Origin: an uncultured Chloroflexia bacterium
GTDB lineage: Bacteria > Chloroflexota > Anaerolineae > Anaerolineales > RBG-16-64-43
DNA length: 64,000 nucleotides
Assembly: GCA_963780865.1 (NCBI GenBank)
Contig: CAWADT010000022.1
Span: forward strand, 79,499-143,498
Reading direction: 5' to 3'
Of the stretch, positions 11,629-64,000 are shown piece after piece (the stretch's first letter is position 1; the number at the start of each line of letters is the position of its first letter). The position numbers and the translations under genes were made by a program. The notes under the pieces are model-generated. The model worked only from the letters and a program-made list of their open reading frames with translations. It did no database searches and was not told where the DNA came from.

Positions 11629-11701
11629 GCCGACGTAGCTCAATCGGCAGAGCAACCGCCTTGTAAGTGGTAGGTTATGGGTTCGATTCCCATCGTCGGC
11701 T
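11629..11701 (+). tRNA. tRNA-Thr (anticodon UGU)
   Basis: GCCGACG acceptor pairing with CGTCGGC, D arm GCTC/GAGC, anticodon stem ACCGC/GTGGT with loop CTTGTAA, T arm ATGGG-TTCGATT-CCCAT. Confidence 0.9.
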
Positions 11702-11792
11702 TGGGCGAACATACCGGGTGACCGGTGTTAACAACATCCGATCCGCGCTGGAGGGCGGCGGGCGTGGCGGGCGGGCGACCGCACCGGTGTAG

Positions 11793-11810
11793 GGGCGATG
11801 CATGCATCGC
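11793..11810. repeat. Perfect 18-nt palindrome GGCGATGCATGCATCGCC in the tRNA spacer (gtaggggcg-type hairpin family)
   Basis: Preceded by gtagg. The same prefix occurs at the 13555-13579 hairpin. Confidence 0.6.
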
Positions 11811-11851
11811 CTCTTGTAGCGGATCGGTCTCCCGCCGGCGACGGCGAATAT

Positions 11852-11937
11852 GGGCGGTTACCCAAGTGGCCAAAGGGGACTGACTGTAAATCAGTTGGCA
11901 GCAGCCTTCGGAGGTTCAAATCCTTCACCGCCCACCA
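11852..11937 (+). tRNA. tRNA-Tyr (anticodon GUA), long variable arm, CCA encoded
   Basis: GGGCGGT acceptor pairing with ACCGCCC, followed by A-CCA. Anticodon stem ACTGA/TCAGT with loop CTGTAAA. T loop TTCAAAT. Confidence 0.9.
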
Positions 11938-12022
11938 TCGGGGTTAAGCCTGCCCCCTGAGCGAGTTGTACCGGTGATCTTCCGGTGCGGCGATTTCGCG
12001 AGGGGGGCTTGCCTGCCCTCCA

Positions 12023-12095
12023 GCCCGCGTAGCTCAGTCGGTAGAGCACACCCTTGGTAAGGGTGGGGTCATGGGTCCAATTCCCATCGCGGGCT
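12023..12095 (+). tRNA. tRNA-Thr (anticodon GGU)
   Basis: GCCCGCG acceptor pairing with CGCGGGC, anticodon stem CACCC/GGGTG with loop TTGGTAA, T arm ATGGG-TCCAATT-CCCAT. Confidence 0.9.
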
Positions 12096-12142
12096 CTCGT
12101 CGGCCGGAAGAAGACGCTCATCTTTTCTGAGGAGAAGCGACC

Positions 12143-13342
<1,200 letters not shown>

Positions 13343-13382
13343 AAGGAGCCGCGGAGCTTTCCTTCCGCGGAAGGAATAGAGG

Positions 13383-13550
13383 ATGCCAAAATCGAAAGAT
13401 GTCCGGCCGGTAATCACGCTGGCCTGCTCCGACTGCAAGGAGCGCAACTATACGACCCAGAAAAACCGGCGCAACGATCAGGCGCGGCTGGAACTCAAGA
13501 AATATTGCCCGCATTGCCGCAAGCATACGTTGCACAAGGAATCAAAATAA
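13383..13550 (+). CDS. rpmG: 50S ribosomal protein L33
   Basis: 55 aa, below the ORF-track cutoff: [55 protein letters not shown]. It has two CxxC pairs and an AGAGG RBS. Confidence 0.9.
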
Positions 13551-13558
13551 TCGCGTAG

Positions 13559-13579
13559 GGGCGGATCGCTGATCCGCCC
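13559..13579 (+). repeat. Perfect 9-bp-stem hairpin GGGCGGATC-gct-GATCCGCCC after rpmG (gtaggggcg-type family)
   Basis: Lies between the rpmG stop and tRNA-Trp. There is no U-tract, so it is more likely a repeat or processing element than a terminator. Confidence 0.55.
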
Positions 13580-13610
13580 GAATTGGGCGCACAACCGTGC
13601 GCACCAACCT

Positions 13611-13684
13611 AGGCCAGTAGCTCAATTTGGCAGAGCACCGCTCTCCAAAAGCGGGGGTTGTGGGTTCAATTCCTGCCTGGCCTG
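13611..13684 (+). tRNA. tRNA-Trp (anticodon CCA)
   Basis: AGGCCAG acceptor pairing with CTGGCCT, anticodon stem CCGCT/AGCGG with loop CTCCAAA, T arm GTGGG-TTCAATT-CCTGC. Confidence 0.9.
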
Positions 13685-28305: not shown

Positions 28306-29523
28306 TCAGGATATCGGGATTTTATCCGCCCGGTCTTTCAAGTGCCGGTTTTCGTCATAAAGTGTTTGTGTTTGCCAAAGCCTCCAGAGGACTGACAACC
28401 AGCGGTTGGCTAGGCAACGGTAGGCCTGCGCATCGCTCGAACAGCGCAATCGCACCTGTTGGAAGTACATTTGCGCCCAAGGCGATTCCGGCAGGGAGGC
28501 ACGCGCCCATTGTTGCGCGATGGTGCGGAACTCATGATCGCAGGAACGGCGGAATTTGACGTACCTCCGTTTCCCGCTCGCATCGGTCACCGGACATGTT
28601 CCCGCCAGCATCTGCAGCGAAGAGGGAGAAGGAAACCGGGAAAGATCTTCCCCCACCTTCGCCAGAAGTGCCGGAGCCAGATAGGCACCGGCCCCCGGCA
28701 GACTGGAAAATACCGGCGCCAAGGAGTGCTGTTCGAACAAGGGCTTGAGATCTTTCAGCGCCTGATATTTAGCGCGGACCAAAGCCAAGGTTGTCTCGGA
28801 GGTATGGACAATGACATTCCGAAACGCCTCCGCCGTATCCGAATCAGCATGGATCGCATTTTCCTGCAATCGGGCGAAACGCGAAGCCAACTTCCGGGGA
28901 GCGGGATACCGGTGCTGGCGGGCGAATTGAAGAAAGGCTTCCCATGTCAGCTGGGAGGCTTCTTGCGGGGTGGGAAAAAGTCTCAGGAAATGCAGGGAAA
29001 TCTGGGCATCCAGGTTGCAAAACAGTGTGGCGGCAGACGGGAAACAACGCAAGAGCACATCCCGCAGGCGGTTGGTTTGCCGAACGATATCGCGGGTGAG
29101 ATTGCCGATATGCCTTACCTGGATCTGCACCCGGCGGAGGGTTGAGCTTCCCGGAGACCAGGGCTGCAGGCGTTGCCGTTTGGTGCGCACCAGATCGGCT
29201 ATGATTTCCGCATCCCCTGGATCGGACTTGGCCCCGCTGCTAGTGCGCGTCTTTCGTTCGGCTTTGACCCGGTTGGGTGGGGCCACCCAAATGTGGGTGA
29301 AACCATTCGCCCAAAGGAAATCAATCAGAAGGGTGTACGAGCACTCGATGGCAAGGAAACAATCCTCCGGATCGGCTCCCAATCCGCGGGTTCGTTCCAC
29401 CAGGAGAGCGAAACCCGCTGCGGAATGGGGGATTTGGAATTTTGCCAGCAGGCTTCCTTCCTGGTTCTGGAAGCAAATATCATGTTTGGATCGGCTCCAG
29501 TCGATTCCTATGTACAATTGCAT
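28306..29523 (-). CDS. IS110-family (DEDD / RuvC-like + Tnp_20-like) transposase/recombinase
   Basis: 405 aa from ATG 29523, which is preceded by AAGGAGG. The sequence starts MQLYIGIDWSRSKHDICF. It continues with ...GAKSDPGDAEIIADL... and ...FSSLPGAGAYLAPALLAKVGEDLSRFPSPSSLQMLAGTCPVTDASGKR. It then shows ...SCDHEFRTIAQQWA... and ...YRCLANRWLSVLW. Confidence 0.92.
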   Translation of the reverse strand: MQLYIGIDWSRSKHDICFQNQEGSLLAKFQIPHSAAGFALLVERTRGLGADPEDCFLAIECSYTLLIDFLWANGFTHIWVAPPNRVKAERKTRTSSGAKSDPGDAEIIADLVRTKRQRLQPWSPGSSTLRRVQIQVRHIGNLTRDIVRQTNRLRDVLLRCFPSAATLFCNLDAQISLHFLRLFPTPQEASQLTWEAFLQFARQHRYPAPRKLASRFARLQENAIHADSDTAEAFRNVIVHTSETTLALVRAKYQALKDLKPLFEQHSLAPVFSSLPGAGAYLAPALLAKVGEDLSRFPSPSSLQMLAGTCPVTDASGKRRYVKFRRSCDHEFRTIAQQWARASLPESPWAQMYFQQVRLRCSSDAQAYRCLANRWLSVLWRLWQTQTLYDENRHLKDRADKIPIS

Positions 29524-29569
29524 GAGGGCCTCCTTATGGCGGAACGAGAGGTCCACCAGCACGGCCGAT

Positions 29570-50461: not shown

Positions 50462-50706
50462 ATGAAAGCTTGTCATGCCCGAGTGGTCGTATCGGGCATC
50501 CATGAAAGCTTGTCATGCCCGAGTGGTCGTATCGGGCATCCACGGGAGCCTGTCATGCCCGAGTAGTCTTATCGGGCATCCACGGGAGCCTATCATGACC
50601 GAGAAGGCGTATCAGGCAGCCATGAGAGCCTGTCATGCCCGAGAAGGCGTATCAGGCAGCCATGAGAGCCTGTCATGCCCGAGTGATTCTATCGGGCATC
50701 CACGCG
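50431..50706 (+). repeat. Tandem array of ~7 units of a 40-bp repeat, each containing the hairpin ATGCCCGA-N9-TCGGGCAT (family F minimal unit)
   Basis: tgtcatgccc recurs at 50471, 50511, 50551, 50631 and 50671, with a degenerate copy at 50591 (tatcatgacc), giving an exact 40-bp period. Units differ in the 7-8-nt loop and the 9-nt linker. Confidence 0.9.
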
Positions 50707-50878
50707 TTTTATTTTCTTGACAAAATGTTGATTTTGGATTCCCGCCCCCCGAGAAACCCACTCGAGGGCAGGCTAATCCACGCGGGAATGACGAACACCC
50801 TTCAGATAAGTTCGTCCCGGATGAATGATCGAATTGGGCATCCATGGGGAAGAAATATCTTCCATTATTGCTGGTGTT

Positions 50879-50973
50879 GGATTCCCGCCAAGGACACCCT
50901 CGCTACGCATTCATCCCGGCTCATGAACCAGACGCGAGTCGGGATGCTTTGCGAGGGCTGGCGCAGGAATGAC
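50879..50973 (+). repeat. 95-bp palindromic element (ggattcccgcc...caccctcgctacgcattcatcccggctcatgaacca...gcgagggctggcgcaggaatgac)
   Basis: ~85% identical to 54706-54800. Confidence 0.8.
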
Positions 50974-51054
50974 GATCTCCAGGATAAGGTTGTTCGTTAC
51001 GATCATAAAAAAGCCGCGTTTACCCGATTCGGAACCCCGCATATAATCTGTGGC

Positions 51055-52230
51055 ATGGCAAACCGCGTAAGAGAGTTCGCCCTGCTCGGATTGTCACTCC
51101 TGCTTGGCATTGTCCTTGGCGTCCTGCTGTTGGAATTGGTTTTCCGTTCCAACACTACACTTCTACCGCGCGGCATGGCCGCGCCGCTGCCGGTGGACGC
51201 GCCCCTGGCCGACCGCGAGTACGAGATCCACTCTTCGGACGCGGACATCTTTTATTGGGAAGCCTCGCTCGTCCGGCCGCCCGCGGAAAACCAACTGGAA
51301 GCCAGGGTAAGGTGGCGCACCGACGAGTTCGGGTTCCCCAATCCGGCTCCCGTCCCCCCCATGGTGGATCTGGTTATCCTTGGACGGTCCTACGCGATGG
51401 GGGCCCAGGCGCAAAATCCCTGGCCGGATATTCTTCGCACCGAAGCGGGATTGCGCGTGCTCAATCTCTCCCAGACCGGCGCCGGTCTGGGGCAGAAATG
51501 GGATTTTTTCCGGCGCTTCGGACTCCCCCGCCAACCCCGATTCGTCGTCATTGAAATCCTGCCGCCGATGGATATCCTCCAGTACGGCGGTGCCGAACCC
51601 ATGGTGGTCGAGCGGGTGGCATTTCCACTCGCCCAAAGCGTCCTGCGCAAGCTATTCCCGCCAGAGGCAACGCAGGATGCGGGCGGATATATCTACCCGC
51701 TTCCATTGGAGTTCGACGGCGGCGGCACGCAGGCCGTTTTTTACTCCCGCTATCTCTCGGCCTTGACGCTTTCGGCGGAGGATTGGGCCGGCAGCGAGGA
51801 TTGGAAAAATTTTAGCGCCGATTTGACCAGCATGATTTCAACGATCCGGCGGGATGGGATCGTGCCGATCCTCCTTTTCGTTCCAACCAAAGAGACCGTC
51901 TACGTTCCCCGGTTGAGATCCGCCTCGATCCTGGAACCCGCGCTGGCCAGCGCCGGTTCCTGGAAACGGACGGGCGGGAAATTGCAGTGGAGCGCGCAAG
52001 AAACGGACGCCGGAGTAGTTCAGGCCGACGCGCCTTCCGCGGAAGGCCTGATCAAGGAATTGGCTCTCGGCCAATCCCTTTGCCTGGTGGATCCGACGGA
52101 CGCGTTCTGGCAATCGATTCAGAACGGCGCCGATCCGTTTATGCGCTACGACACGCATTGGAGCGCAGTCGGGCACGAACTGGTGGCGGACGGGATCCTG
52201 GCCGTTCTCCATTCGGGGATGTGCACTTAA
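51055..52230 (+). CDS. AlgJ/AlgX-like (DHHW-type SGNH) polysaccharide O-acetyltransferase, N-terminal membrane anchor
   Basis: 391 aa from MANRVREFALLGLSLLLGIVLGVLLLELVF, with the C-terminal motif FMRYDTHWS. It is the partner of the adjacent MBOAT. The 140 upstream codons of the track ORF are repeat DNA. A TATAAT at 51042-47 lies only 7 nt upstream of the ATG. Confidence 0.75.
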   Translation: MANRVREFALLGLSLLLGIVLGVLLLELVFRSNTTLLPRGMAAPLPVDAPLADREYEIHSSDADIFYWEASLVRPPAENQLEARVRWRTDEFGFPNPAPVPPMVDLVILGRSYAMGAQAQNPWPDILRTEAGLRVLNLSQTGAGLGQKWDFFRRFGLPRQPRFVVIEILPPMDILQYGGAEPMVVERVAFPLAQSVLRKLFPPEATQDAGGYIYPLPLEFDGGGTQAVFYSRYLSALTLSAEDWAGSEDWKNFSADLTSMISTIRRDGIVPILLFVPTKETVYVPRLRSASILEPALASAGSWKRTGGKLQWSAQETDAGVVQADAPSAEGLIKELALGQSLCLVDPTDAFWQSIQNGADPFMRYDTHWSAVGHELVADGILAVLHSGMCT

Positions 52231-53665
52231 TGACCCTCTCTTCGCCGATATATCTTTTATTCCTCGGAATCGTCTGGCTGGCCGTGCGTTTCCTTCCCGG
52301 CGCCCGGGCGAAAAAATATTCCTTGCTGGCGGCGAGCCTTGTTTTCTACGCGCTGCTCGACCTGCGGTATTTGGCGCTGCTGCTCTTAGTGGCCATCGTC
52401 GCCTACGGATTGGGATTGGGCATCGGGCGCGGATGGAAGGCGGGAGTGTGCGCGGGGATCGGCATTGCATTCGCTCTCTTCGTCCTCGCAGCGTATAAAT
52501 ATTCCGCCCTATGGCTGCCGGTCGTTACTCGAATTCCGCTGCCCGGGTTCAGCCGGGATCGGTTCGATCCCATGGGATGGCTTCTCCCGGTGGGAATTTC
52601 GTTTTATACCTTCCAGGCGATTTCTTATCTCATCGATATATCCCGCGGCCGGGTAAAACCTGTCCGGGAGATCGCGGATTTCGGTTTGTATTTGATCTTT
52701 TTCCCGAAGATCATCGCCGGCCCGATCGTGCGGCCCACTGACTTCTTCCGGGATATCGCGCCGGGCCCGCAGCCGGCCGGGCGCAAAGACCTCGCGGGGA
52801 TTTTCTCCCTGTTCCTCCGCGGCCTGTTCAAAAAAGTGGTCATTGCGGATTCACTGGCCGGCCTGGCCGGGATCGGATTTCAGGCGGCGGCGATGCCGTC
52901 GGCCTCGGTTTTCGCGGCACCGATCTATTGGCGGAGTTTCTACCTGTTCGCCATTCAGATTTACGCCGATTTTTCCGGATACACCGACATCGCCCGCGCC
53001 TCCGCCAGGCTCCTGGGGATCCGGCTACCGGAAAATTTCAGCTACCCGTACTTCGCCACGTCGATCACGGAGTTCTGGAATCGCTGGCACATGAGCCTGA
53101 CCCAATGGTTCCGGGAGTACGTTTTCTTCCCGTTGAACCGGACGCTGCAGAGGTCTTTTCGCAAAGTCGGTTCGGCAATTCTTCAGGCCGCGACGAATGT
53201 TTTCACCATGCTGCTGATCGGGCTTTGGCACGGCGCGGGCCTCACCTTTCTGGCCTGGGGGTTGTGGCACGGCGTTCTCCTCAGCGCCGAGAAATTCTGG
53301 AATCGAAAACCGGGTTCGGCGGGATGGAAGATTTTTCGGGGCTGATCGCATTCCATTTGGTCGCCGTGGGTTGGGTTCTCTTTCGATCCGATTCCCTTCC
53401 GGCCGCGATGCGATTTTTTGCGGGAATGGCGGCGGGCGGACAATGGTTCCTGCTGGGGGAGTGTGTCCTGTCCGTTGCGGCCGCGGGGATGGCCCTCGCC
53501 CTGACCGACGCGCCCGGGTTTGGTTTTCTTCCGCCTGCTTTGCTTTCCTCAAGGATCGTCCGGGTACTCGTTTCCACGGCCGCTGTGCTCTCCATCGGCG
53601 TCATTTGGATTTTGGGATGGGCAACTGGCGGAGCCAGCCTGCCGTTCATCTACGGAAGCTTCTGA
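52230..53665 (+). CDS. MBOAT-family (AlgI/DltB-like) membrane O-acyltransferase, apparent -1 frameshift near 53306-53310
   Basis: The start overlaps the upstream stop (TAATG). It has FYTFQAISYLIDI, EFWNRWHMSLTQWFREYVFFP and the catalytic-His region LIGLWHGAG. The reading frame continues in track ORF 52928..53665 (...GLIAFHLVAVGWVLFRSDSL...) if one A is added to the A4 run cgaaaacc. Confidence 0.8.
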
Positions 53666-53795: not shown

Positions 53796-54584
53796 ATGCC
53801 CGAAAATCCGTCTTCCCTTTCCGATGCGTCCATCCCCGAACGCGCTGTGGCCAAAGTCGACCCGCACGCCGAACCGCCCGCGCCAAAAAGCGTGATGACG
53901 ATCAACGCGCACCCCGACGACCAGGAATTCACGGTCGCCGGGACGCTCGCCAAATGGGCCCGCGCCGGGTGCGCCGTCATCGCGGTGTGCGTCACCGACG
54001 GCAACTCGGGCAGCAACGATCCGGCCAAAGGAATCGGCTACAAGCCCGAGCTGGCCCGCCTGCGCCAGGGTGAGCAGCGCGAGGCGGGGGCGGTGATCGG
54101 CGTGAAGGAGACAGTCTTCCTGCATCAGCCGGACGGGGAGCTGCAGCCCACGCTTGCGCTGCGCCGTGACCTGACCCGACTGATACGGAAATACAAACCC
54201 GAGGCGGTGATCTGCGGCGATCCGACGGCGCGGTTCTATGGAAATTCCTATATGAACCATCCCGATCACCGCGCCGCCGCCGACGCCGCCTGCGACGCGG
54301 TGTTTCCTTCGGCCGGAACGCGCCTGATCTTTCCGGAGCTGCTCGCCGAAGGCTTTCCGCCGCACAACGTGAAACGCCTATACCTTCATGGGTCCGAAAA
54401 ACCGGACGCCTGGATCGACATCACCGCGACCATCGACGTGAAAATCCGCGCGCTGCGCTGCCACCGCTCGCAAGTGGGCGAGGGAGAAGATCTTGACCGA
54501 AGGATGCGCGAGTGGGCGGAAGAGGACGGATCGCCGCGCGGGATGAAATACGCCGAGGCGTTCCGCGTGATGGTGTTGGAGTGA
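53796..54584 (+). CDS. PIG-L/LmbE-family N-acetylglucosaminyl deacetylase
   Basis: 262 aa with MTINAHPDDQEF, VTDGNSGS and NHPDHRAAADA zinc-site motifs. AAGGAG RBS. Confidence 0.88.
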   Translation: MPENPSSLSDASIPERAVAKVDPHAEPPAPKSVMTINAHPDDQEFTVAGTLAKWARAGCAVIAVCVTDGNSGSNDPAKGIGYKPELARLRQGEQREAGAVIGVKETVFLHQPDGELQPTLALRRDLTRLIRKYKPEAVICGDPTARFYGNSYMNHPDHRAAADAACDAVFPSAGTRLIFPELLAEGFPPHNVKRLYLHGSEKPDAWIDITATIDVKIRALRCHRSQVGEGEDLDRRMREWAEEDGSPRGMKYAEAFRVMVLE

Positions 54585-54987: not shown

Positions 54988-57577
54988 ATGAACCTCGACC
55001 GATTTACCGAACGGGCACAGGAAGCGGTTTCCGACGCGCAACAAACCGCGCTGGAATTCCACCATGCCTACATCGAGCCGGCCCACATTCTTCGGGCGCT
55101 CCTGCATCAGGAGCAGGGCGTAGCCTCGCAAGTGATCTCCGGCGCAGGCGGAAACCCGCAGGCGCTGGAATCCGAGCTGGACAGCGAGCTGAGCGCCATG
55201 CCGAAAGTCGGCGGGGATTCCTCGCAGATCAGCCTATCACGCCAGGGGTCCGAAGCGCTCTCGGCGGCCGAGCGCGAAGCCGCGGCGATGAAGGACGAAT
55301 ACGTCTCCACCGAACACATCCTGCTGGCGCTGGCCGAGACGATGCCGATCCTGCGCAGGCACAACCTCGGGAAGGATCCGTTGCTCAAGGCGCTCGCCGC
55401 CATCCGCGGCAGCCAGCGCGTCACTTCCCAAAATCCGGAAGCCACCTATAACGCGCTCGAAAAATACGGGCGCGATCTCACCGCCATGGCAACGCTGGGC
55501 AAACTCGATCCGGTGATCGGCCGCGACGAAGAGATCCGGCGCGTGATCCAGATTCTTTCGCGGCGGACCAAAAACAACCCGGCGCTGGTGGGTGACCCCG
55601 GTGTGGGCAAGACCGCTATCGCCGAGGGGTTGGCGCAGCGCATCGTGCGCGGCGACGTGCCCGAAGGATTGAAGAACAAACGCCTGATCCAGCTGGACAT
55701 GGGCGCGTTGGTGGCGGGGGCCAAGTTCCGCGGCGAATTCGAGGAGCGGTTGAAGGCGGTATTAAAGGAAGTGACCGAATCCGACGGGCGGGTGATTCTG
55801 TTCGTCGACGAGCTGCACACGGTGGTGGGGGCCGGAGCGGCCGAGGGCGCGATGGACGCGGGCAACATGCTTAAGCCGATGCTGGCCCGCGGCGAACTGC
55901 ATCTGATCGGCGCAACCACCCTTGACGAATATCGCAAATACGTGGAAAAGGACGCCGCCCTCGAGCGCCGCTTCCAGCCGGTGCCGGTGGAGGAGCCGTC
56001 GGTCGAGGATACGGTCTCCATCCTGCGCGGCTTGAAGGAGAAGTACGAACTCCATCATGGAGTGCGCATCACCGACCCGGCCGTGATCGCCGCCGCCACG
56101 CTTTCGCAGCGCTACATCACTGACCGCAGGCTGCCCGATAAGGCCATCGACCTGATCGACGAAGCGGCCGCGCGGATGCGGACCGAGATCGAACTCCAAG
56201 CCCCAGGCGCTGGATACGGTGGACCGGCAGATCATGCAGCTCGAGATCGAGCGCGAGGCGCTGCGAAAAGAGAGCGATAAAGCCAGCCGCGAACGGCTGA
56301 AGGGAATCGAAAAACAGCTCGCCGACCTGGGCGAGGAATCCCACCGCCTGAATGGCCAGTGGCAGAAGGAAAAGCAGGCGATCCTCGCGATGCGCTCGGT
56401 GAAGGAGCAGATCGAACGGGTGAAACTGGAGATCGAGCAGGCCGAGCGGCGCGCCGATCTGGAGGCGGCCGCGCGGCTGCGCTATGGAACGCTGCGCGAT
56501 CTGGAAGCCAAACGCGCCGAGGCCGAAAAGCGGCTGGGCGAAATGAATTCGGGCGGCCCGCGCATGCTCAAGGAAGAAGTGGACGCCGAGGACATTGCCG
56601 CCGTGGTGGCCAAGTGGACCGGCGTGCCGGTGGCGAGGCTGCTGGAGGGGGAGATGGAAAAAATGGTGCACATGGAAGACCGGCTGCACCTGCGCGTGGT
56701 GGGGCAGGACGAGGCGGTGCGGGCGGTTTCCAACGCCGTGCGCCGCGCGCGCGCCGGATTGCAGGATCCCAATCGGCCGCTGGGTTCGTTCATCTTCCTT
56801 GGTCCGACCGGCGTGGGTAAAACGGAACTCGCCCGTACCCTGGCGGAGTTCCTCTTCGACGACGAGCAGGCAATGGTGCGGATCGACATGGGCGAGTATC
56901 AGGAAAAGCACACCGTCTCGCGCCTGATCGGCGCCCCGCCCGGATACCTCGGGTACGAGGAAGGCGGCCAGCTCACCGAAGCCGTGCGCCGGCGCCCGTA
57001 CGCCGTGGTGCTACTGGACGAGATCGAAAAGGCCCACCCGGAAGTGTTCAACGTGCTGCTGCAGCTCCTGGATGACGGGCGGCTGACCGACGGCCAGGGC
57101 CGGACGGTTTCCTTCCGCAACGTGGTCGTGATCATGACCAGCAACCTTGGCGGCGAGTTGTGGCTTGGTGGCGAGACCGTCACCCGCGAAGCGGCGCTGG
57201 AAGTGTTGCAGCGCGCGTTCCGGCCCGAATTCCTCAATCGGGTGGACGAGATCGTGATTTTCCGCCCGCTGGCGAAGGAGCAAATCACGCGCATCGTCGA
57301 TATCCAGCTTAAGCGCGTGGAGAAACTCCTGGCGGACCGCGACATTAGGCTTGAGGTCAAACCGGGCGCGCGCGAATATCTGGCCGAGGCTGGATGGGAT
57401 CCGGCTTACGGCGCGCGTCCCCTGAAACGCGCTATCCAGCGCGAATTGCAGGATCCGCTCGCCATGGAAATATTGCAGGGCGAATTATTACCCGGCATGA
57501 CAGTCCGCGTCGACCGCGGGAAGGAAGGGCTGGCATTCGCCCCCGCGGCCAAAGGCAAAGCGGCAACCGGATCGTAA
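54988..57577 (+). CDS. clpB: ClpB disaggregase (Hsp104/ClpB AAA+ chaperone), apparent +1 frameshift near 56191-56194
   Basis: Track ORFs 54988..56280 and 56219..57577 are the two pieces. It has an N-domain, NBD1 ([10 protein letters not shown]), a coiled-coil M-domain, NBD2 ([10 protein letters not shown]) and [10 protein letters not shown]. Removing one A from gagatcgaactcc gives ...[28 protein letters not shown], the expected ClpB sequence. Confidence 0.92.
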
Positions 57578-57898: not shown

Positions 57899-58042
57899 AT
57901 GTTCAAGCAGCAAAGGAAAGGCCAAGGTCTTGTAGAGTACGCATTGATTCTGGTTCTGGTCGCCATCGTTATCATCGTTATTTTGTCGGTCCTTGGTCCT
58001 GCAATCGGCAATGTTTTCAGCATGATTATCAATGGCATTTAA
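57899..58042 (+). CDS. flp: Flp/Fap-type pilin precursor, copy 1 (47 aa)
   Basis: MFKQQRKGQGLVEYALILVLVAIVIIVILSVLGPAIGNVFSMIINGI, with the G-x4-EY prepilin motif followed by a hydrophobic helix. AAAGGAGG RBS. It is below the ORF-track size cutoff. The antisense track ORF 57685..58038 is spurious. Confidence 0.85.
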   Translation: MFKQQRKGQGLVEYALILVLVAIVIIVILSVLGPAIGNVFSMIINGI

Positions 58043-58068: not shown

Positions 58069-58107
58069 ACCGACGGCCAAATGGACCTTTGGCCGTCGGT
58101 TCTTTTT
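58069..58107 (+). terminator. Rho-independent terminator after flp copy 1
   Basis: ACCGACGGCCAAA-tggacc-TTTGGCCGTCGGT followed by tcttttt. Confidence 0.85.
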
Positions 58108-58365: not shown

Positions 58366-58509
58366 ATGTTCAAGCAGCAGAGGAAAGGTCAAGGTCTTGT
58401 AGAGTACGCGTTGATTCTGGTTCTGGTTGCCATCGTCATCATCGTCATTCTGTCGGTCCTCGGACCCGCCATCGGCAACGTTTTCAGCCAGATCGTCAAC
58501 ACCATCTAG
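58366..58509 (+). CDS. flp: Flp/Fap-type pilin precursor, copy 2 (47 aa)
   Basis: MFKQQRKGQGLVEYALILVLVAIVIIVILSVLGPAIGNVFSQIVNTI, differing from copy 1 only in 4 of the last 6 residues. AAAGGAG RBS. Confidence 0.85.
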   Translation: MFKQQRKGQGLVEYALILVLVAIVIIVILSVLGPAIGNVFSQIVNTI

Positions 58510-58537
58510 GCGTTTCGAGTCCTTTCTACGAACGCGG

Positions 58538-58574
58538 ACGACGGCCAAGCCGCAAGGGCTTGGCCGTCGTTTTT
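58538..58574 (+). terminator. Rho-independent terminator after flp copy 2
   Basis: ACGACGGCCAAGC-cgcaagg-GCTTGGCCGTCGT followed by tttt. The stem core is shared with the first flp terminator. Confidence 0.85.
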
Positions 58575-59236: not shown

Positions 59237-59336
59237 AGTTCCGTTTCTCCTGGTTGTCAACTCCCGCGTCCTCGGCAGACAATCCGCCGAGGATGTGGTT
59301 TAATCCCACCATCCTCAATTTTCTCCGGCTTCTCGG

Positions 59337-61175
59337 ATGATCGATTTCCCTCTGGCAACTGCATCAGCCTGTCTGCCGGCATTTCTGGCTCTGGTGCTTC
59401 CGGGAGCGGCAATCCTCGCACTCCTCCCGGATCGACGCCGCGGGGCGGTGGAGCTGCTCTCCATCGCCTTTGGATTGGGATTATCGGTCGTCGCGCTGGG
59501 CGCGCTGATCGGACGGGTCGCGGGTTTCCGCTACGGACCGGCGCTGCTGATCGGCCTTGGAGCGGGTTGGACGATCCTCGCGGCGGCGGGCCTCGCGCGA
59601 AAGAAATTCTCCCTCCGCTGGTCCGCATTCGCGGGTTTGGAATTTCTTGCCCTCGCCGGACTGCTCGCGCTTCGGTTGTATCAGGCGCGCGATTTGGCGC
59701 TGCCGGCCTGGGTGGATTCGGTTCACCACGTTTTCCTTGTGCGGTTGTTCCTCGAGGGCGGGGGGCTTCCCGCCGCGCTTGCGCCGTGGATCCCCGGGCC
59801 TTTCTATTATCACTTCGGGTTCCACGCCGCGGCCGCTTTGTTCGCCGCGGTTTCCGGGCTCGCCCCCGACCGGGCGGTGCTCCTCTTCGGGCAGATTCTC
59901 AACGCAGCCGCGGCGCTCTCCGCCTACCGGCTGTCGATGGCGCTGCGCCGGGACCGCCGCCAGGCGCTGCTCGTCCTCGCGCTGGTCGGTTTCATCTCGG
60001 AGATGCCGGCGTATTATCTGACCTGGGGGCGTTATACGCTGCTGGCCGGAATGGTTCTGCTGCCGCTGGCCATGGCCGAAGCGATCGAGTACGCACTCCG
60101 TTCGCCGCGGCCGGCCTCGGCCGTGCGGCTGGCCATCCTCACCGCCGGCACGCTGCTGACCCACTACCTTACCGGAATCCTCCTGGCGGTTTTCCTTCTG
60201 CTCATCGGCGGGTGCGTTCTCTTGCGCCGGAAATACCGGAGGCAACTCTCGGGATTGGCCGTGGCGGTGGCGGCCGGAACGGCGGCGGCGCTGCCCTGGC
60301 TGATCCCGATGCTGCGCTATAGCGCCGGCAGCGTCGGACTGGACGTCGTCGCGCCCGGCGGGGCGGTGGATGCGATGTATTTCGCCAACTACGGCCAGTA
60401 TCTGTGGAACCTGCTTGGTCCGCTGCGGAACTATCTGCTGCTCGGATTCGGCCTGCTCGGCGCCGTAGCCGCGCTTTTCCGGCGCGGACCGCTGCGGCTC
60501 TTCGCGGCGTGGGGGCTGGTGGTGGGAATGGAGACGCTGCCTTGGGGAGTGCGCCTCGCCCCGTTCCGGCCGGACCATCTGGCCATCATCGTTTTTCTGC
60601 CCGCGACCATCCTGGCGGCCAGAGGGTTAATCGCCCTGGCGGATTATCTGAACCGCCGCGTGCCGGCGATGCGCGCGGGATTCTTTTTCGGGGGACTCGC
60701 GCTTGGGTGCTGCGTCCTCGGCATTTGGCAGACGCGCACGATCGTCAATCCGGCCGCCGTGTTCGCCGCCTCCGACGACCGGCAGGCGGCCGTCTGGGTG
60801 GAGCAAAACACGCCCGCGGATTCAGTCTTCCTGATCAACGTCGTCCCATGGCAAAGCGGTTTGTACCGCGGGGTGGACGGTGGTTGGTGGCTGGAAGCGC
60901 TGGCGGGGAGGCGCACGCTGCTGCCGCCGATGCTATATAGTTTCGGCCCGCGGGAGTACATCGATCAGGTCGATGGGCTGGCCGCAACCGTCAGCACCCT
61001 CACGGGTTGCACCGGGGAGTTTTGGTCCGTGGTGCGAGCCCAGGGCGTCACCTACATTTACATTAAAGAAGGAACCGGATCACTCCAGCCGGACGGACTG
61101 GAAGAATGCCCTGGAATAGAGGAGGTTTTTCGCGCCGGGAAAGTGAGAATATACCGGATTGTGCCGGGGGAATGA
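59337..61175 (+). CDS. Polytopic membrane protein with C-terminal extracytoplasmic domain (possible GT-C-like)
   Basis: 612 aa with ~13 hydrophobic helices and a loop motif LPAWVDSVHHVFLVRLF. No confident family. Confidence 0.7.
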   Translation: MIDFPLATASACLPAFLALVLPGAAILALLPDRRRGAVELLSIAFGLGLSVVALGALIGRVAGFRYGPALLIGLGAGWTILAAAGLARKKFSLRWSAFAGLEFLALAGLLALRLYQARDLALPAWVDSVHHVFLVRLFLEGGGLPAALAPWIPGPFYYHFGFHAAAALFAAVSGLAPDRAVLLFGQILNAAAALSAYRLSMALRRDRRQALLVLALVGFISEMPAYYLTWGRYTLLAGMVLLPLAMAEAIEYALRSPRPASAVRLAILTAGTLLTHYLTGILLAVFLLLIGGCVLLRRKYRRQLSGLAVAVAAGTAAALPWLIPMLRYSAGSVGLDVVAPGGAVDAMYFANYGQYLWNLLGPLRNYLLLGFGLLGAVAALFRRGPLRLFAAWGLVVGMETLPWGVRLAPFRPDHLAIIVFLPATILAARGLIALADYLNRRVPAMRAGFFFGGLALGCCVLGIWQTRTIVNPAAVFAASDDRQAAVWVEQNTPADSVFLINVVPWQSGLYRGVDGGWWLEALAGRRTLLPPMLYSFGPREYIDQVDGLAATVSTLTGCTGEFWSVVRAQGVTYIYIKEGTGSLQPDGLEECPGIEEVFRAGKVRIYRIVPGE

Positions 61176-61239
61176 TCGGATATACTTCCGGAAATTCATC
61201 CCTGGGATATATAAGTCGGAAGGGAGACGGAGAGGGTTT

Positions 61240-62112
61240 ATGCCACGGGACATTCGAAAGGATTTTTTCTACGGCAAGAAAGTGCTGATCACGGGCGGGT
61301 CCAGCGGGATCGGATTGGCGCTCGCCCGTCAACTCGCGGCGCGAGGCGCAAACCTATGGCTAGTGGCGCGGAATGAAGCCAAGCTCGAGAACGCCCGCCG
61401 GGAGCTGCAAGCCGCGGCGGTCGATCCCTCGCAAAAGGTGGGCTTCACTTCGGCCGATGTGGCGGTGGAAAGCCAAGCCCGGGCTGCGGCGGAGCAGGCC
61501 GCGAAGGCGCTTGGTGGGTTGGACATCCTGATCAACAATGCCGGCACGTCGCATCCCGGCTACTTTCTGGAGATGGACTCGAAAATCTTCCGGGAAACGA
61601 TGGAGACGAATTATTTCGGCACACTCAACCTGACCCGCGCCGTCGTGCCAGCGATGATCCAGCGCGGAAAGGGACATATCGTCAACGTTTCCTCCGCGGC
61701 GGCTTACCTGGCGGTGTTTGGGTATGCATCCTACGCGCCCACCAAATGGGCGGTACGCGGCCTGAGCGACGTGCTGCGCTACGAACTGAAACCGCGCGGT
61801 ATCCGGGTGACACTCGCCATGCCGCCCGACACCGACACGCCGTCGCTGGCCAAGGAAAAAAAGATCCGCCCCAAAGAGACGGAGATCATCTCCTCCTCCG
61901 GCACGGTCTATAAGCCTGAGCAGGTGGCGCGCGACATCCTTTGGGGAGTGGAACACAATCGCTACATCGTCATCACTGGAATGGACGCCGTGCTCTTCTA
62001 CTGGCTGACCAACCTTCTCGGACCGCTGCAATACCCGGTGATGGACCTGTTTGTGTCGGACGCCATCGCCAAAAAGAAAAAAGCCGAAGGCCGAAAAGAC
62101 ACTCGCGTATAA
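61240..62112 (+). CDS. Short-chain dehydrogenase closely resembling 3-ketodihydrosphingosine reductase (KDSR/Tsc10-type)
   Basis: 290 aa from MPRDIRKDFFYGKKVLITGGSSGIGLALA (TGxxxGIG). It has NNAG, the catalytic YAPTKWAVRG (YxxxK), then AMPPDTDTPSLAKEKKIRPKETEIISSSGTVYKPEQVARDI, and a hydrophobic C-terminal tail. GGAGACGGAGAGGG lies upstream. Confidence 0.75.
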   Translation: MPRDIRKDFFYGKKVLITGGSSGIGLALARQLAARGANLWLVARNEAKLENARRELQAAAVDPSQKVGFTSADVAVESQARAAAEQAAKALGGLDILINNAGTSHPGYFLEMDSKIFRETMETNYFGTLNLTRAVVPAMIQRGKGHIVNVSSAAAYLAVFGYASYAPTKWAVRGLSDVLRYELKPRGIRVTLAMPPDTDTPSLAKEKKIRPKETEIISSSGTVYKPEQVARDILWGVEHNRYIVITGMDAVLFYWLTNLLGPLQYPVMDLFVSDAIAKKKKAEGRKDTRV

Positions 62113-62148
62113 TAGGCTTGGACCAATTCCCACGCTTGGAGGAGCAGG

Positions 62149-63327
62149 ATGGATATCTTCGCAAAATGCCCCGTGTTCACCGATGCCAAAGAAGCCATGG
62201 CGGCCGGGTTTTATCCCTACTTCATTCCAATGGAAGGCAACGAGGGGACGGAGGCGATTTTCCAGGGACGCCGCCTGATCATGTGCGGCTCGAACAACTA
62301 TCTTGGCCTGACGATTGACCCGCGCGTGCGGGAAGCGGCCGTGGAAGCGATCCGCAAATACGGGACCTCGTGCACGGGTTCGCGTTTTCTCAACGGGACG
62401 CTGGAGATGCACGAGCAGCTTGAGCGGGAACTCGCGAAGTTCGTCGGCAAGGAAGCCGCGCTGGTATTTTCCACCGGGATGCAGACCAACTTGGGAACGA
62501 TCTCGGCCATCGTCGGGCGCGGGGATTACGTGGTTTTGGACAAGGAAGACCACGCGAGCATCGTGGACGGGGCGCGGCTCTGTTGGGGCGAGACGCGGCG
62601 CTTCAAGCACAACGATATGCAGGATTTCGAACGGGTGCTGGCCGCCTTGCCGGAAGACAAAGGCAAACTGGTGGTGGTCGACGGTCTGTACAGCATGGAA
62701 GGCGACCTCGCCCCGCTGCCGGAAATCGTTCCCCTCTGTAAAAAGTACGGCGCCCGGTTGATGGTGGACGACGCCCATGGCATCGGCGTGCTGGGCAAGG
62801 GGCGCGGGACCGCAGCGCACTTCGGCATCACCCAGGACGTGGACCTGATCATGTCCACCTTCAGCAAATCCTTCGCCTCCCTCGGCGGATTCATCGCCGG
62901 GGACGAGCCGGTGATCCACTACATCAAGCATCACGCCCGGGCGCTGATGTTCTCCGCCAGCATCCCGCCCGCCAACGCCGCCGCGGCGCTCGCAGCGCTG
63001 CACATCATGCGTGACGAACCCGAGCACAGCGCGCGGCTCAACGCCATCGCCGACAAGATGCGCGCCGGCTACCGGAGCCTGGGGTTCGACATCGGCAACT
63101 CCACCACGCCGATCATCCCGATCCTCATCGGCGACGACCTCAAAACCATCTTCACCTGGAAGGCGCTGTTCGAAGACGGAGTGTTCGTCAATCCGGTGCT
63201 TTCCCCCGGCGTCTCCCCGGGACGGCAAATGCTGCGCACTTCCTACATGGCCACCCACACCGACGCGCAGATGGACAAGGTGCTGGAAGTGTTCGGCAAA
63301 GTGGGAAAGAACATGGGATTGATATAA
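62149..63327 (+). CDS. Alpha-oxoamine synthase, serine palmitoyltransferase-like
   Basis: 392 aa with [47 protein letters not shown] and the PLP-lysine context [13 protein letters not shown]. It lies 36 nt after the KDSR-like gene. BioF or Kbl cannot be excluded from sequence alone. Confidence 0.7.
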
Positions 63328-63347
63328 AACGATCTTCGAGAAAATTT

Positions 63348-63416
63348 CTCACCGCAAAGACGCAAAGGGCGCAAAGATTTTATTATTTCTTGGCGACTTT
63401 GCGCCTTTGCGGTGAG
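63348..63416. repeat. Compound hairpin (ctcaccgcaaag-acgcaaag-ggcgcaaag ... ctttgcgcc-tttgcggtgag) between convergent genes
   Basis: The arms are reverse-complementary and built from gcaaag words. It may double as a bidirectional terminator, since T-rich tracts flank it. Confidence 0.7.
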
Positions 63417-63507
63417 ATTTTGATTTTTCAATCCATTCGAAATTATTCTACTTATTAATAAATTTCATCTGCTGATATCGAAAACCCCTTTCCGCGATAC
63501 ACAGGAT

Positions 63508-64000
63508 TCATATTATCCATCGCACGACGGCGCAACCATAGGCGGGCGTTTCAGCCGGATCGGGATTCCCGCCGGCGAGGAGCGCGCGCAATTCGTTTTC
63601 CAGATACGCCCGGGTGGGGGCGGGCTGGCGGAAAGTGGCATCGTCCAGCGCGCCGTGATAGCGGAGGACGCCCTCCCGGTCGAGGAGGAAAAATTCCGGC
63701 GTGAGCTGGGCGCCGTACTGGTCGGTCACTGTCCGGTCGGGATCGAGCAGGACAATCCCCCGGAACCGCTTGGCCGCTTCCAGGCGGATTGCGTCGACGC
63801 TCTCGTCGGCGTTCATCGCCAGGCGGAGAACGAGGGCGGAGGAGGCGAGCTCGGAAGGCCAGTTTCCCATCACCCGGTCGGCCCGCTGTGACCATGGGCA
63901 GGCGGCCGACCAAAAATAAAGCAGCACGGCCTGCCCGCGGTACTCGCCCAGAGTGTGGAGACGACCGGAAAGGTCGGGCAGGGAGAAAGCAGGCGCGGGC
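63508..64000 (-). CDS. Thioredoxin-fold (TlpA/redoxin-like) protein, 5' end beyond window
   Basis: The frame stays open to the window end: ...PAPAFSLPDLSGRLHTLGEYRGQAVLLYFWSAACPWSQRAD.... The active-site position reads CPWS (CxxS, single Cys). Confidence 0.75.
   Translation of the reverse strand, partial: PAPAFSLPDLSGRLHTLGEYRGQAVLLYFWSAACPWSQRADRVMGNWPSELASSALVLRLAMNADESVDAIRLEAAKRFRGIVLLDPDRTVTDQYGAQLTPEFFLLDREGVLRYHGALDDATFRQPAPTRAYLENELRALLAGGNPDPAETPAYGCAVVRWII

Follow-up and report, generated by a model that had tools for sequence, protein, structure and literature searches.

Human 3-ketodihydrosphingosine reductase (KDSR, or FVT1) and fungal Tsc10 (EC 1.1.1.102) are classical short-chain dehydrogenases/reductases (SDRs), and to our knowledge BT_0972 of Bacteroides thetaiotaomicron is the only bacterial KDSR that has been tested biochemically. 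BT_0972 is a membrane-associated SDR of about 30 kDa that uses NADPH to convert 3-ketodihydrosphingosine (3-KDS) to sphinganine; its identity to Tsc10/FVT1 is only about 16–30%, and its gene does not lie in a cluster with one for serine palmitoyltransferase (SPT; EC 2.3.1.50) (PMC9278070). Here we describe a gene pair, encoding an SDR of the KDSR type directly followed by an SPT, in a 64,000-nucleotide stretch of contig CAWADT010000022.1 from an uncultured, Anaerolineales-like member of the Chloroflexota; the whole stretch is referred to below as the window. From their sequences, it is likely that the two enzymes make sphinganine by the same two steps as in eukaryotes.

The order of the sphingoid steps in bacteria is still debated (PMC11087976). 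In the Caulobacter crescentus pathway, made up of Spt, bCerS and CerR, bCerS acts before CerR, and CerR is an NDUFA9-like, periplasmic protein (PMC11087976). A different arrangement was described in Pseudomonas fluorescens MYb115, where the sgaABC genes encode an iterative polyketide synthase (PKS), an alpha-oxoamine synthase (AOS) and a KDSR homologue, and are proposed to yield dihydrosphinganines (PMC12134224). For the Chloroflexota, a study by Ding, von Meijenfeldt et al. (2024, ISME J) described genes resembling Spt in 218 metagenome-assembled genomes, and a correlation in the Black Sea between the abundance of Anaerolineae and ceramides, glycosyl-ceramides and lysyl-ceramides; their search for partner genes covered CerR and bCerS only, and the supplement gives no per-phylum figures for these two (PMC11334938). 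A 2025 follow-up proposed Chloroflexota as a source of sediment ceramides, with a partner search again limited to CerR and bCerS. The gene pair and its signals in the window are as follows.

61240..62112, + strand: KDSR-type (FVT1-like) classical SDR gene, ATG start, 290 aa; predicted NADPH-dependent 3-ketodihydrosphingosine reductase
62149..63327, + strand: SPT-type AOS gene, 392 aa; product of the soluble bacterial kind, nearest to the SPTs of Bacteroidota
61229..61236, + strand: Shine-Dalgarno-like site GGAGAGGG, 3 nt 5' of the SDR ATG, read from the sequence
62138..62144, + strand: Shine-Dalgarno-like site GGAGGAG, 4 nt 5' of the SPT ATG, within the 36-nt intergenic spacer, read from the sequence
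63347..63429, + strand: intrinsic-terminator-like hairpin and U-tract closing the transcription unit after the SPT gene, found by RNA folding

The original prediction, made from the letters of the window, had placed a KDSR-like reductase and an SPT-like synthase 36 nt apart, and the open reading frames confirm this; both lie on the + strand, and the gap is exactly 36 nt. The peptides that it quoted (AMPPDTDTPSLAKEKKIRPKETEIISSSGTVYKPEQVARDI, FYPYF...GSNNYLGL and TFSKS) were all found in the translations. The longest open reading frame of the SDR begins at an alternative TTG at 61159 and would give 317 aa; the ATG at 61240 was taken as the start because the homologues are uniformly 290 aa and the GGAGAGGG site precedes this ATG.

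Judged by its sequence, the synthase belongs with the Bacteroidota-type SPTs, soluble and without an N-terminal hydrophobic anchor, and it is predicted to condense serine with a long-chain acyl-CoA or acyl-acyl carrier protein (ACP) to give 3-KDS. Against NCBIfam models it scored 533.6 bits with SerpalmtaseCFB, 406.6 with the beta-proteobacterial SPT model, 376 with a BioF/Kbl-related subfamily, 369 with bioF (TIGR00858), 344 with Kbl and 244 with ALAS, so that the SPT model stands ahead of the BioF and Kbl models by about 165 bits or more; with Pfam, Aminotran_1_2 gave 191 bits. A search of the PDB gave the same best match, the SPT of Sphingobacterium multivorum (437 bits), followed by Sphingomonas SPTs (294–308), a BioF/Kbl-type enzyme (273), a cysteate-C-fatty acyltransferase (260), Kbl (231), plant LCB2 (208), BioF (207) and ALAS (204). 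The resemblance to SPT claimed in the original prediction thus holds against BioF, Kbl, ALAS and cysteate acyltransferase alike. Grouping with BioF or Kbl, the outcome it had named as counting against it, was not found: the SPT score of 533.6 bits compares with 369 and 344 bits, and no bioA, bioB, bioD or tdh gene was present among the neighbours or the window reading frames scanned.

The S. multivorum SPT (PDB 3A2B/8GUH) also has about 395 aa and lacks an N-terminal hydrophobic anchor, and the window synthase is 51.7% identical to it over 379 residues with one single-residue gap. A crystal study of that enzyme picked out the residues that surround pyridoxal 5'-phosphate (PLP) and the carboxylate and hydroxyl of the serine, along with those of the hydrophobic core next to them (PMC10196870). 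All 15 of the residues checked are identical in the window protein (S. multivorum numbering: Asn52, Gly80, Ser81, Phe83, Leu84, His138, Ser185, Asp210, Ala212, His213, Thr241, Ser243, Lys244, Met271 and Phe272). As in a fold-type I PLP enzyme, the Schiff-base lysine K240, together with the PLP-binding H135, D207 and H210, aligns with K244, H138, D210 and H213, and the contacts to the carboxylate and hydroxyl of L-serine (Asn52, Gly80, Ser81, His138, Ser243 and Met271) correspond to N49, G77, S78, H135, S239 and M267. The two enzymes come from different phyla, and the window SPT lies in an operon with a reductase, whereas sphingolipid genes of Bacteroidota are reported to be unclustered.

The resemblance of the reductase to KDSR is real and goes well past generic SDR similarity. 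Against the exact human sequence (KDSR_HUMAN/NP_002026.1), the SDR showed 39% identity over 253 aa (BLASTP, E 1e-63). On the scale of a PDB phmmer search this amounts to 179 bits (E 1e-51), whereas the best two of more than 500 solved SDR chains gave 118 and 111 bits and fungal TSC10 gave 94 bits, so the window protein is much nearer to human KDSR than to the fungal enzyme. We know of no KDSR model in Pfam or NCBIfam, and both classify the protein simply as a generic classical SDR, with adh_short at 186 bits and Epimerase at merely 29 bits. Most of its homologues are already named '3-dehydrosphinganine reductase' by JGI. Of the bacterial proteins compared, the KDSR-like ones of cyanobacteria come nearest to human KDSR (43–45% identity), nearer than the window SDR.

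In a family alignment of 26 sequences that included human KDSR, TGGSSGIG (residues 18–25), N124, S152, Y165 and K169 were invariant; this glycine-rich motif and N-S-Y-K tetrad, like the classical SDR fold and the arginine after strand beta-2, are shared with human KDSR and Tsc10. In the PPDTDTP segment (195–201), P195, P196, D197, T198, T200 and P201 were invariant and D199 was at least 90% conserved, with one D-to-Q change; further along, P211 was invariant and E213 at least 90% conserved. The longer block PPDTDTP...KP.ET..I......PE.VA is common to human KDSR and the window SDR. The use of the PPDTDTP...KP.ET block after strand beta-6 as a family signature is the criterion of the original prediction rather than a curated definition; the KDSR-like block that it pointed out is borne out by this conservation, along with the identity to human KDSR and the bit scores. 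Arg44, after strand beta-2, is common to the SDR and human KDSR and nearly invariant in the alignment. In classical SDRs this position is linked to a preference for NADP(H). The SDR is therefore likely to use NADPH, and its predicted reaction is the NADPH-dependent reduction of 3-KDS to sphinganine.

The two reductases differ in how they may meet the membrane. Human KDSR has an N-terminal membrane anchor and a C-terminal insertion; the window SDR has neither, its Rossmann fold beginning at residue 13, and it lacks integral anchoring of the eukaryotic kind. In the AlphaFold2 model (predicted local distance difference test score, pLDDT, 91.7) it has a single long C-terminal helix, residues 248–288, with a lysine-rich tail at its end. 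The original prediction spoke of a hydrophobic tail: the long helix is present in the model, but its Kyte-Doolittle peak of 1.46 (19-residue window) falls under the usual threshold for a transmembrane segment. It is plausible from the model that the protein sits on the membrane through this helix, peripherally rather than integrally. There is no N-terminal signal sequence, which points to a cytoplasmic location. The C-terminal 104 residues alone gave no match in the PDB search.

To see how far the pairing extends, the family alignment was compared with one genome per bacterial species, which gave at least 592 confirmed stretches; counts of loci were taken from the best 80. The SDR gene was followed by an SPT gene on the same strand in 12 of the 33 Chloroflexota species loci recovered, with SPTs 70–82% identical to that of the window, and two further Chloroflexota loci were too short to judge. 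The gap between the two genes was 4–117 nt in 11 of these loci and about 2.1 kb in the remaining one (L015). The order was the same in the close relatives L001 and L002 and on a 2.8-Mb contig (L085). No conserved neighbour besides the two genes was found over 14 loci; ABC ATPases, considered as module partners over the same loci, were rejected, being paralogous and variable in position. In a rough, unrooted neighbour-joining tree built from the distances of tblastn segments, and consulted solely on whether SPT-linked and unlinked genes separate, the SPT-linked SDRs fell together in one Chloroflexota subclade, and a second subclade, of Anaerolineaceae, held KDSR-like genes without SPT within 8 kb. 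A 2.74-Mb contig (L003, ERZ25039512) carries a KDSR-like SDR 57% identical to that of the window, with which it groups in the tree; it adjoins dnaE and ruvB, has no SPT within 10 kb, and shares its contig with flagellar flgI and a DUF1577 gene. Conservation of the SPT itself is very strong: over 120 clusters reach at least 77% identity.

A partnership of KDSR-like and AOS genes has also arisen outside the Chloroflexota, as an independent recurrence. Among the loci recovered, those with a KDSR-like SDR directly 3' of another AOS gene include five cyanobacterial and eight alpha- or beta-proteobacterial loci, the opposite order to that in the Chloroflexota. By hidden Markov model, these AOS partners are generic and BioF-like, except that of Limnothrix, and their genes are preceded by or fused to a fatty-acyl-AMP ligase (FAAL) or type I PKS modules. 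Clusters resembling sga were seen in Pararhizobium (L075, 20–8816), in Acaryochloris marina (L039, 3149–8837) and in the cyanobacterial loci L046 and L054, with either a type I PKS (AT-DH-ER-KR-ACP) or an FAAL; the PKS-AOS-KDSR-like locus of Pararhizobium is analogous to sgaABC. As in sgaABC, the window encodes its AOS and KDSR homologue together, with the same role proposed for the KDSR homologue; the sga system depends on a PKS, whereas the window has none and contains, as its AOS, not a generic enzyme resembling BioF but a canonical SPT. Such repeated, independently arranged pairing is the strongest indirect evidence for the substrate class of the SDR.

Signals around the genes are consistent with a single transcription unit whose end follows the AOS gene. 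A simple scan for terminators gave none in the spacer upstream of the SDR gene, which separates it from a membrane-protein gene, or in that between SDR and AOS, and its weak plus-strand matches at 60656–60678 and 62363–62381 lie inside coding sequences. The sole plus-strand promoter-like site of the scan (59254–59283) is 5' of the membrane-protein gene. Downstream of the AOS gene, the hairpin at 63347–63417 has a folding energy of -44 kcal/mol (z = -7.4; none of 200 shuffles folded as well) and is followed by AUUUUGAUUUUU. Since the spacers are free of terminators, the promoter-like site precedes the membrane-protein gene and a terminator follows the AOS gene, a single unit is suggested: a bicistronic sphingoid-base module, or a tricistronic one if the upstream gene is co-transcribed.

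In the pathway that we propose, the soluble, cytoplasmic, PLP-dependent SPT would join L-serine to a long-chain acyl thioester, releasing CO2 and giving 3-KDS. Acyl-CoA is the probable form of this thioester, since neither an ACP gene of its own nor one for an acyl-ACP synthetase lies nearby. The cytoplasmic KDSR-type SDR, probably at the membrane surface, would then reduce the 3-keto group with NADPH to give sphinganine. An unlinked acyltransferase would N-acylate this to dihydroceramide, and head-group addition, if any, would be encoded elsewhere in the genome; the products would presumably be membrane lipids. Reduction before acylation is the order suggested by the tight, conserved KDSR-SPT operon. 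It is the order of eukaryotes and of the route suggested for Bacteroides through BT_0972, and it differs from the Caulobacter scheme, which likewise starts with a soluble bacterial Spt and has its genes in a cluster; no bCerS-like gene is linked to the window pair. BT_0972, compared here by description, has the role that we propose for the window SDR, which is 39% identical to FVT1 and is encoded directly 5' of an SPT gene. The original prediction had called the module eukaryote-style, which fits the implied order of reactions and the family of the reductase; it does not fit the SPT, which is of the soluble bacterial type, the absence of the eukaryotic N-terminal anchor from the SDR, or the large bacterial family to which the SDR belongs.

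Several results weigh against this proposal. Many Anaerolineae have KDSR-like genes without an SPT within 8 kb, so the SDR family may have other substrates. Fold comparison cannot separate KDSR from other SDRs, because the top PDB matches to the SDR model (clavaldehyde dehydrogenase, 11beta-HSD1, HSD17B13 and actKR) are all generic SDRs with nearly equal scores. The synthase falls under the NCBIfam equivalog cutoffs of both SPT models (533.6 against 640 for the CFB model, 406.6 against 500 for the beta model), although a score below cutoff is expected for a Chloroflexota sequence because these models were built for single phyla. JGI names its close homologues '8-amino-7-oxononanoate synthase', and NCBI lists them as generic PLP-dependent aminotransferases; the JGI naming is inconsistent, as the adjoining SDR is called 3-dehydrosphinganine reductase. 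Finally, neither the window nor the search for conserved neighbours yielded a ceramide synthase, an ACP or a head-group enzyme. The original prediction had likewise seen no ceramide synthase candidate, and Pfam scans of the larger window reading frames, several of which had no Pfam match, showed no GNAT/bCerS-like, TLC or ACP gene; small reading frames were outside these scans.

The names and the bioF score of 369 bits would suit a pair of unrelated neighbours, a BioF or Kbl enzyme beside a generic oxidoreductase. We regard this as highly improbable, as the bioF score is under its cutoff of 426 and 165 bits under that of the SPT model, the biotin genes and tdh are absent from the scanned window, adjacency is kept in 12 Chloroflexota species loci, and the pairing of an AOS with a KDSR-like SDR recurs in other phyla. 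There is rather more to be said for a Caulobacter-type order, in which 3-KDS from the SPT is first N-acylated by an unlinked acyltransferase and the SDR then acts as a ceramide reductase on the oxidised ceramide. Acylation precedes reduction in Caulobacter (PMC11087976), and with no linked ceramide synthase the gene context is compatible with either order of the steps. Yet the window SDR is a classical adh_short protein closest to eukaryotic KDSR, without a signal peptide and predicted to be cytoplasmic; it is not NDUFA9-like as the periplasmic CerR, compared here by description, is reported to be (PMC11087976), and KDSR-type homologues in Bacteroides work on free 3-KDS (PMC9278070). We therefore consider this order unlikely.

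It is also improbable that the pair makes some other amino-alcohol lipid or specialised metabolite in place of canonical membrane sphingolipids, for instance 1-deoxy bases built on alanine, a cysteate-derived base of the sulfonolipid type, or a sphingoid-like compound that is secreted, as with PKS/AOS/KDSR clusters. In its favour, Pararhizobium, Acaryochloris, Limnothrix and other bacteria pair KDSR-like SDRs with PKS- or FAAL-linked AOS genes, a published instance being the sga cluster of Pseudomonas (PMC12134224), and SPTs also take alanine and glycine at low efficiency (PMC10196870). However, no PKS, FAAL or ACP gene adjoins the pair in the window or in any Chloroflexota locus recovered. 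The synthase shares 52% identity with a true SPT and retains residues that touch the side chain of serine, among them Asn52, Ser81 and Ser243 (S. multivorum numbering), and the cysteate acyltransferase ranks far lower in the PDB search (260 against 437 bits). The breadth of SPT conservation noted above fits a core membrane function. Synthesis of sphinganine by condensation and then reduction is the reading that we prefer.

The genes flanking the pair encode a cupredoxin, a GT-C protein and an AhpC-like protein, of which the immediate neighbours are the following.

59337..61175, + strand: DUF6541 polytopic membrane protein gene, GT-C fold, 612 aa; same-strand upstream neighbour (Pfam, AlphaFold2, Foldseek)
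63508-63927, - strand: thioredoxin-fold (AhpC/TSA-like) gene, convergent toward the SPT gene (Pfam)

DUF6541 is a Pfam family of unknown function, and the model of the window protein (pLDDT 90.7) predicts a GT-C glycosyltransferase fold with high confidence. The top Foldseek matches were STT3/OST, AftA, PglB, AftD, DPY19 and ArnT, with E values down to 1e-10 and TM scores of about 0.54. An invariant WVDS..H motif (residues 125–131) lies just past predicted helix 4 and before helix 5. The gene adjoins the SDR-SPT pair solely in the nearest relatives (L001, L002, L005 and L085), and homologues at 43% identity in more distant Anaerolineae (L086 and L087) lie directly 5' of the nuo (complex I) operon. 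A role for DUF6541 as a conserved component of the module was rejected, as it is missing from most SDR-SPT loci and its distant homologues stand by nuo genes. The original prediction had suggested that the polytopic protein may belong to the same unit; the gene exists and may be co-transcribed with the pair in the window, but it is a neighbour in close relatives only.

Further upstream on the + strand, an AlgX-like SGNH gene (50635–52230), an MBOAT O-acyltransferase gene (51987–53345) and a PIG-L/LmbE-type deacetylase gene (53796–54584) stand together in a block that is syntenic in L001 and L085. MBOAT and AlgX-like genes are usually part of polysaccharide O-acylation systems; they were set aside as ceramide synthase candidates for this reason, and the block is probably a glycan O-acylation or modification system. 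The clpB gene (54988–57577, +) is split into overlapping reading frames of 430 and 452 aa, with a switch of frame near 56192. Compared with the intact 860-aa ClpB of L001 there is a single extra A (GATCGAACTCC against GATCGACTCC), a frameshift that stems from a mistake in sequencing or assembly, or else marks a pseudogene. Two tandem genes for 47-aa Flp/Fap-type pilins (57899–58042 and 58366–58509, +) lie in a 161-nt direct repeat of 83% identity, each followed by a strong terminator-like hairpin (58069–58100 and 58536–58572); relatives have up to five copies. An IS110-family transposase gene (28306–29562, -) is found where the G+C content falls to 0.557, the window as a whole having about 0.61, and four tRNA genes were found in 11629–13684 (+) by Rfam.

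The locus is a sound further case of a pathway already established, and not a new kind of system. Sphingolipid potential in the Chloroflexota was known already, as were KDSR-type reductases in Bacteroides and in the Pseudomonas PKS cluster. The suggestion of the original prediction that such a pair would extend the distribution of bacterial sphingolipid synthesis is outdated, given the Spt-like genes in 218 Chloroflexota genomes (PMC11334938) and the JGI label '3-dehydrosphinganine reductase'. The novelty lies in the close and conserved linkage of KDSR and SPT genes as an operon in Anaerolineae, and with it in the reductase step, previously unassigned in the phylum. Ding et al. (2024) dealt with the same class and drew the same inference from Spt homology, and a KDSR-type partner or an operon with Spt is not mentioned there (PMC11334938); no paper linking a KDSR-type reductase with Chloroflexota was found in the literature searched, which did not extend to subscription-only work. 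The published inference for Chloroflexota rests on Spt homology alone, and a conserved operon with a KDSR-type reductase strengthens the case for a role of Spt in sphingoid-base synthesis. The operon names the missing reductase for the phylum and predicts a eukaryote- or Bacteroides-like order of steps. It also flags an annotation problem, with SPT widely labelled as BioF or as a generic aminotransferase. Both genes are small and their products soluble or peripheral, which makes the prediction directly testable in E. coli.

Anaerolineae are among the most abundant bacteria of anoxic sediments, digesters and activated sludge, and are generally regarded as having no outer membrane. Ceramides were recently found to be major and persistent in sedimentary lipid pools, with Chloroflexota a suspected, unproven source (PMC11334938; 2025 follow-up). 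More tentatively, and as an idea that we hold at somewhat less than even chances, the large bacterial family of FVT1-type KDSRs (at least 592 stretches) may represent a second, eukaryote-like route of reduction followed by acylation, which was independently and repeatedly paired with an AOS in Chloroflexota, Cyanobacteria and Proteobacteria and became hard-wired as an operon in Anaerolineae. If so, Anaerolineae would be genuine producers of cytoplasmic-membrane sphingolipids, and a plausible source of ceramides in anoxic waters and sediments, and the family could also help to show whether the KDSR step of eukaryotes has bacterial origins.

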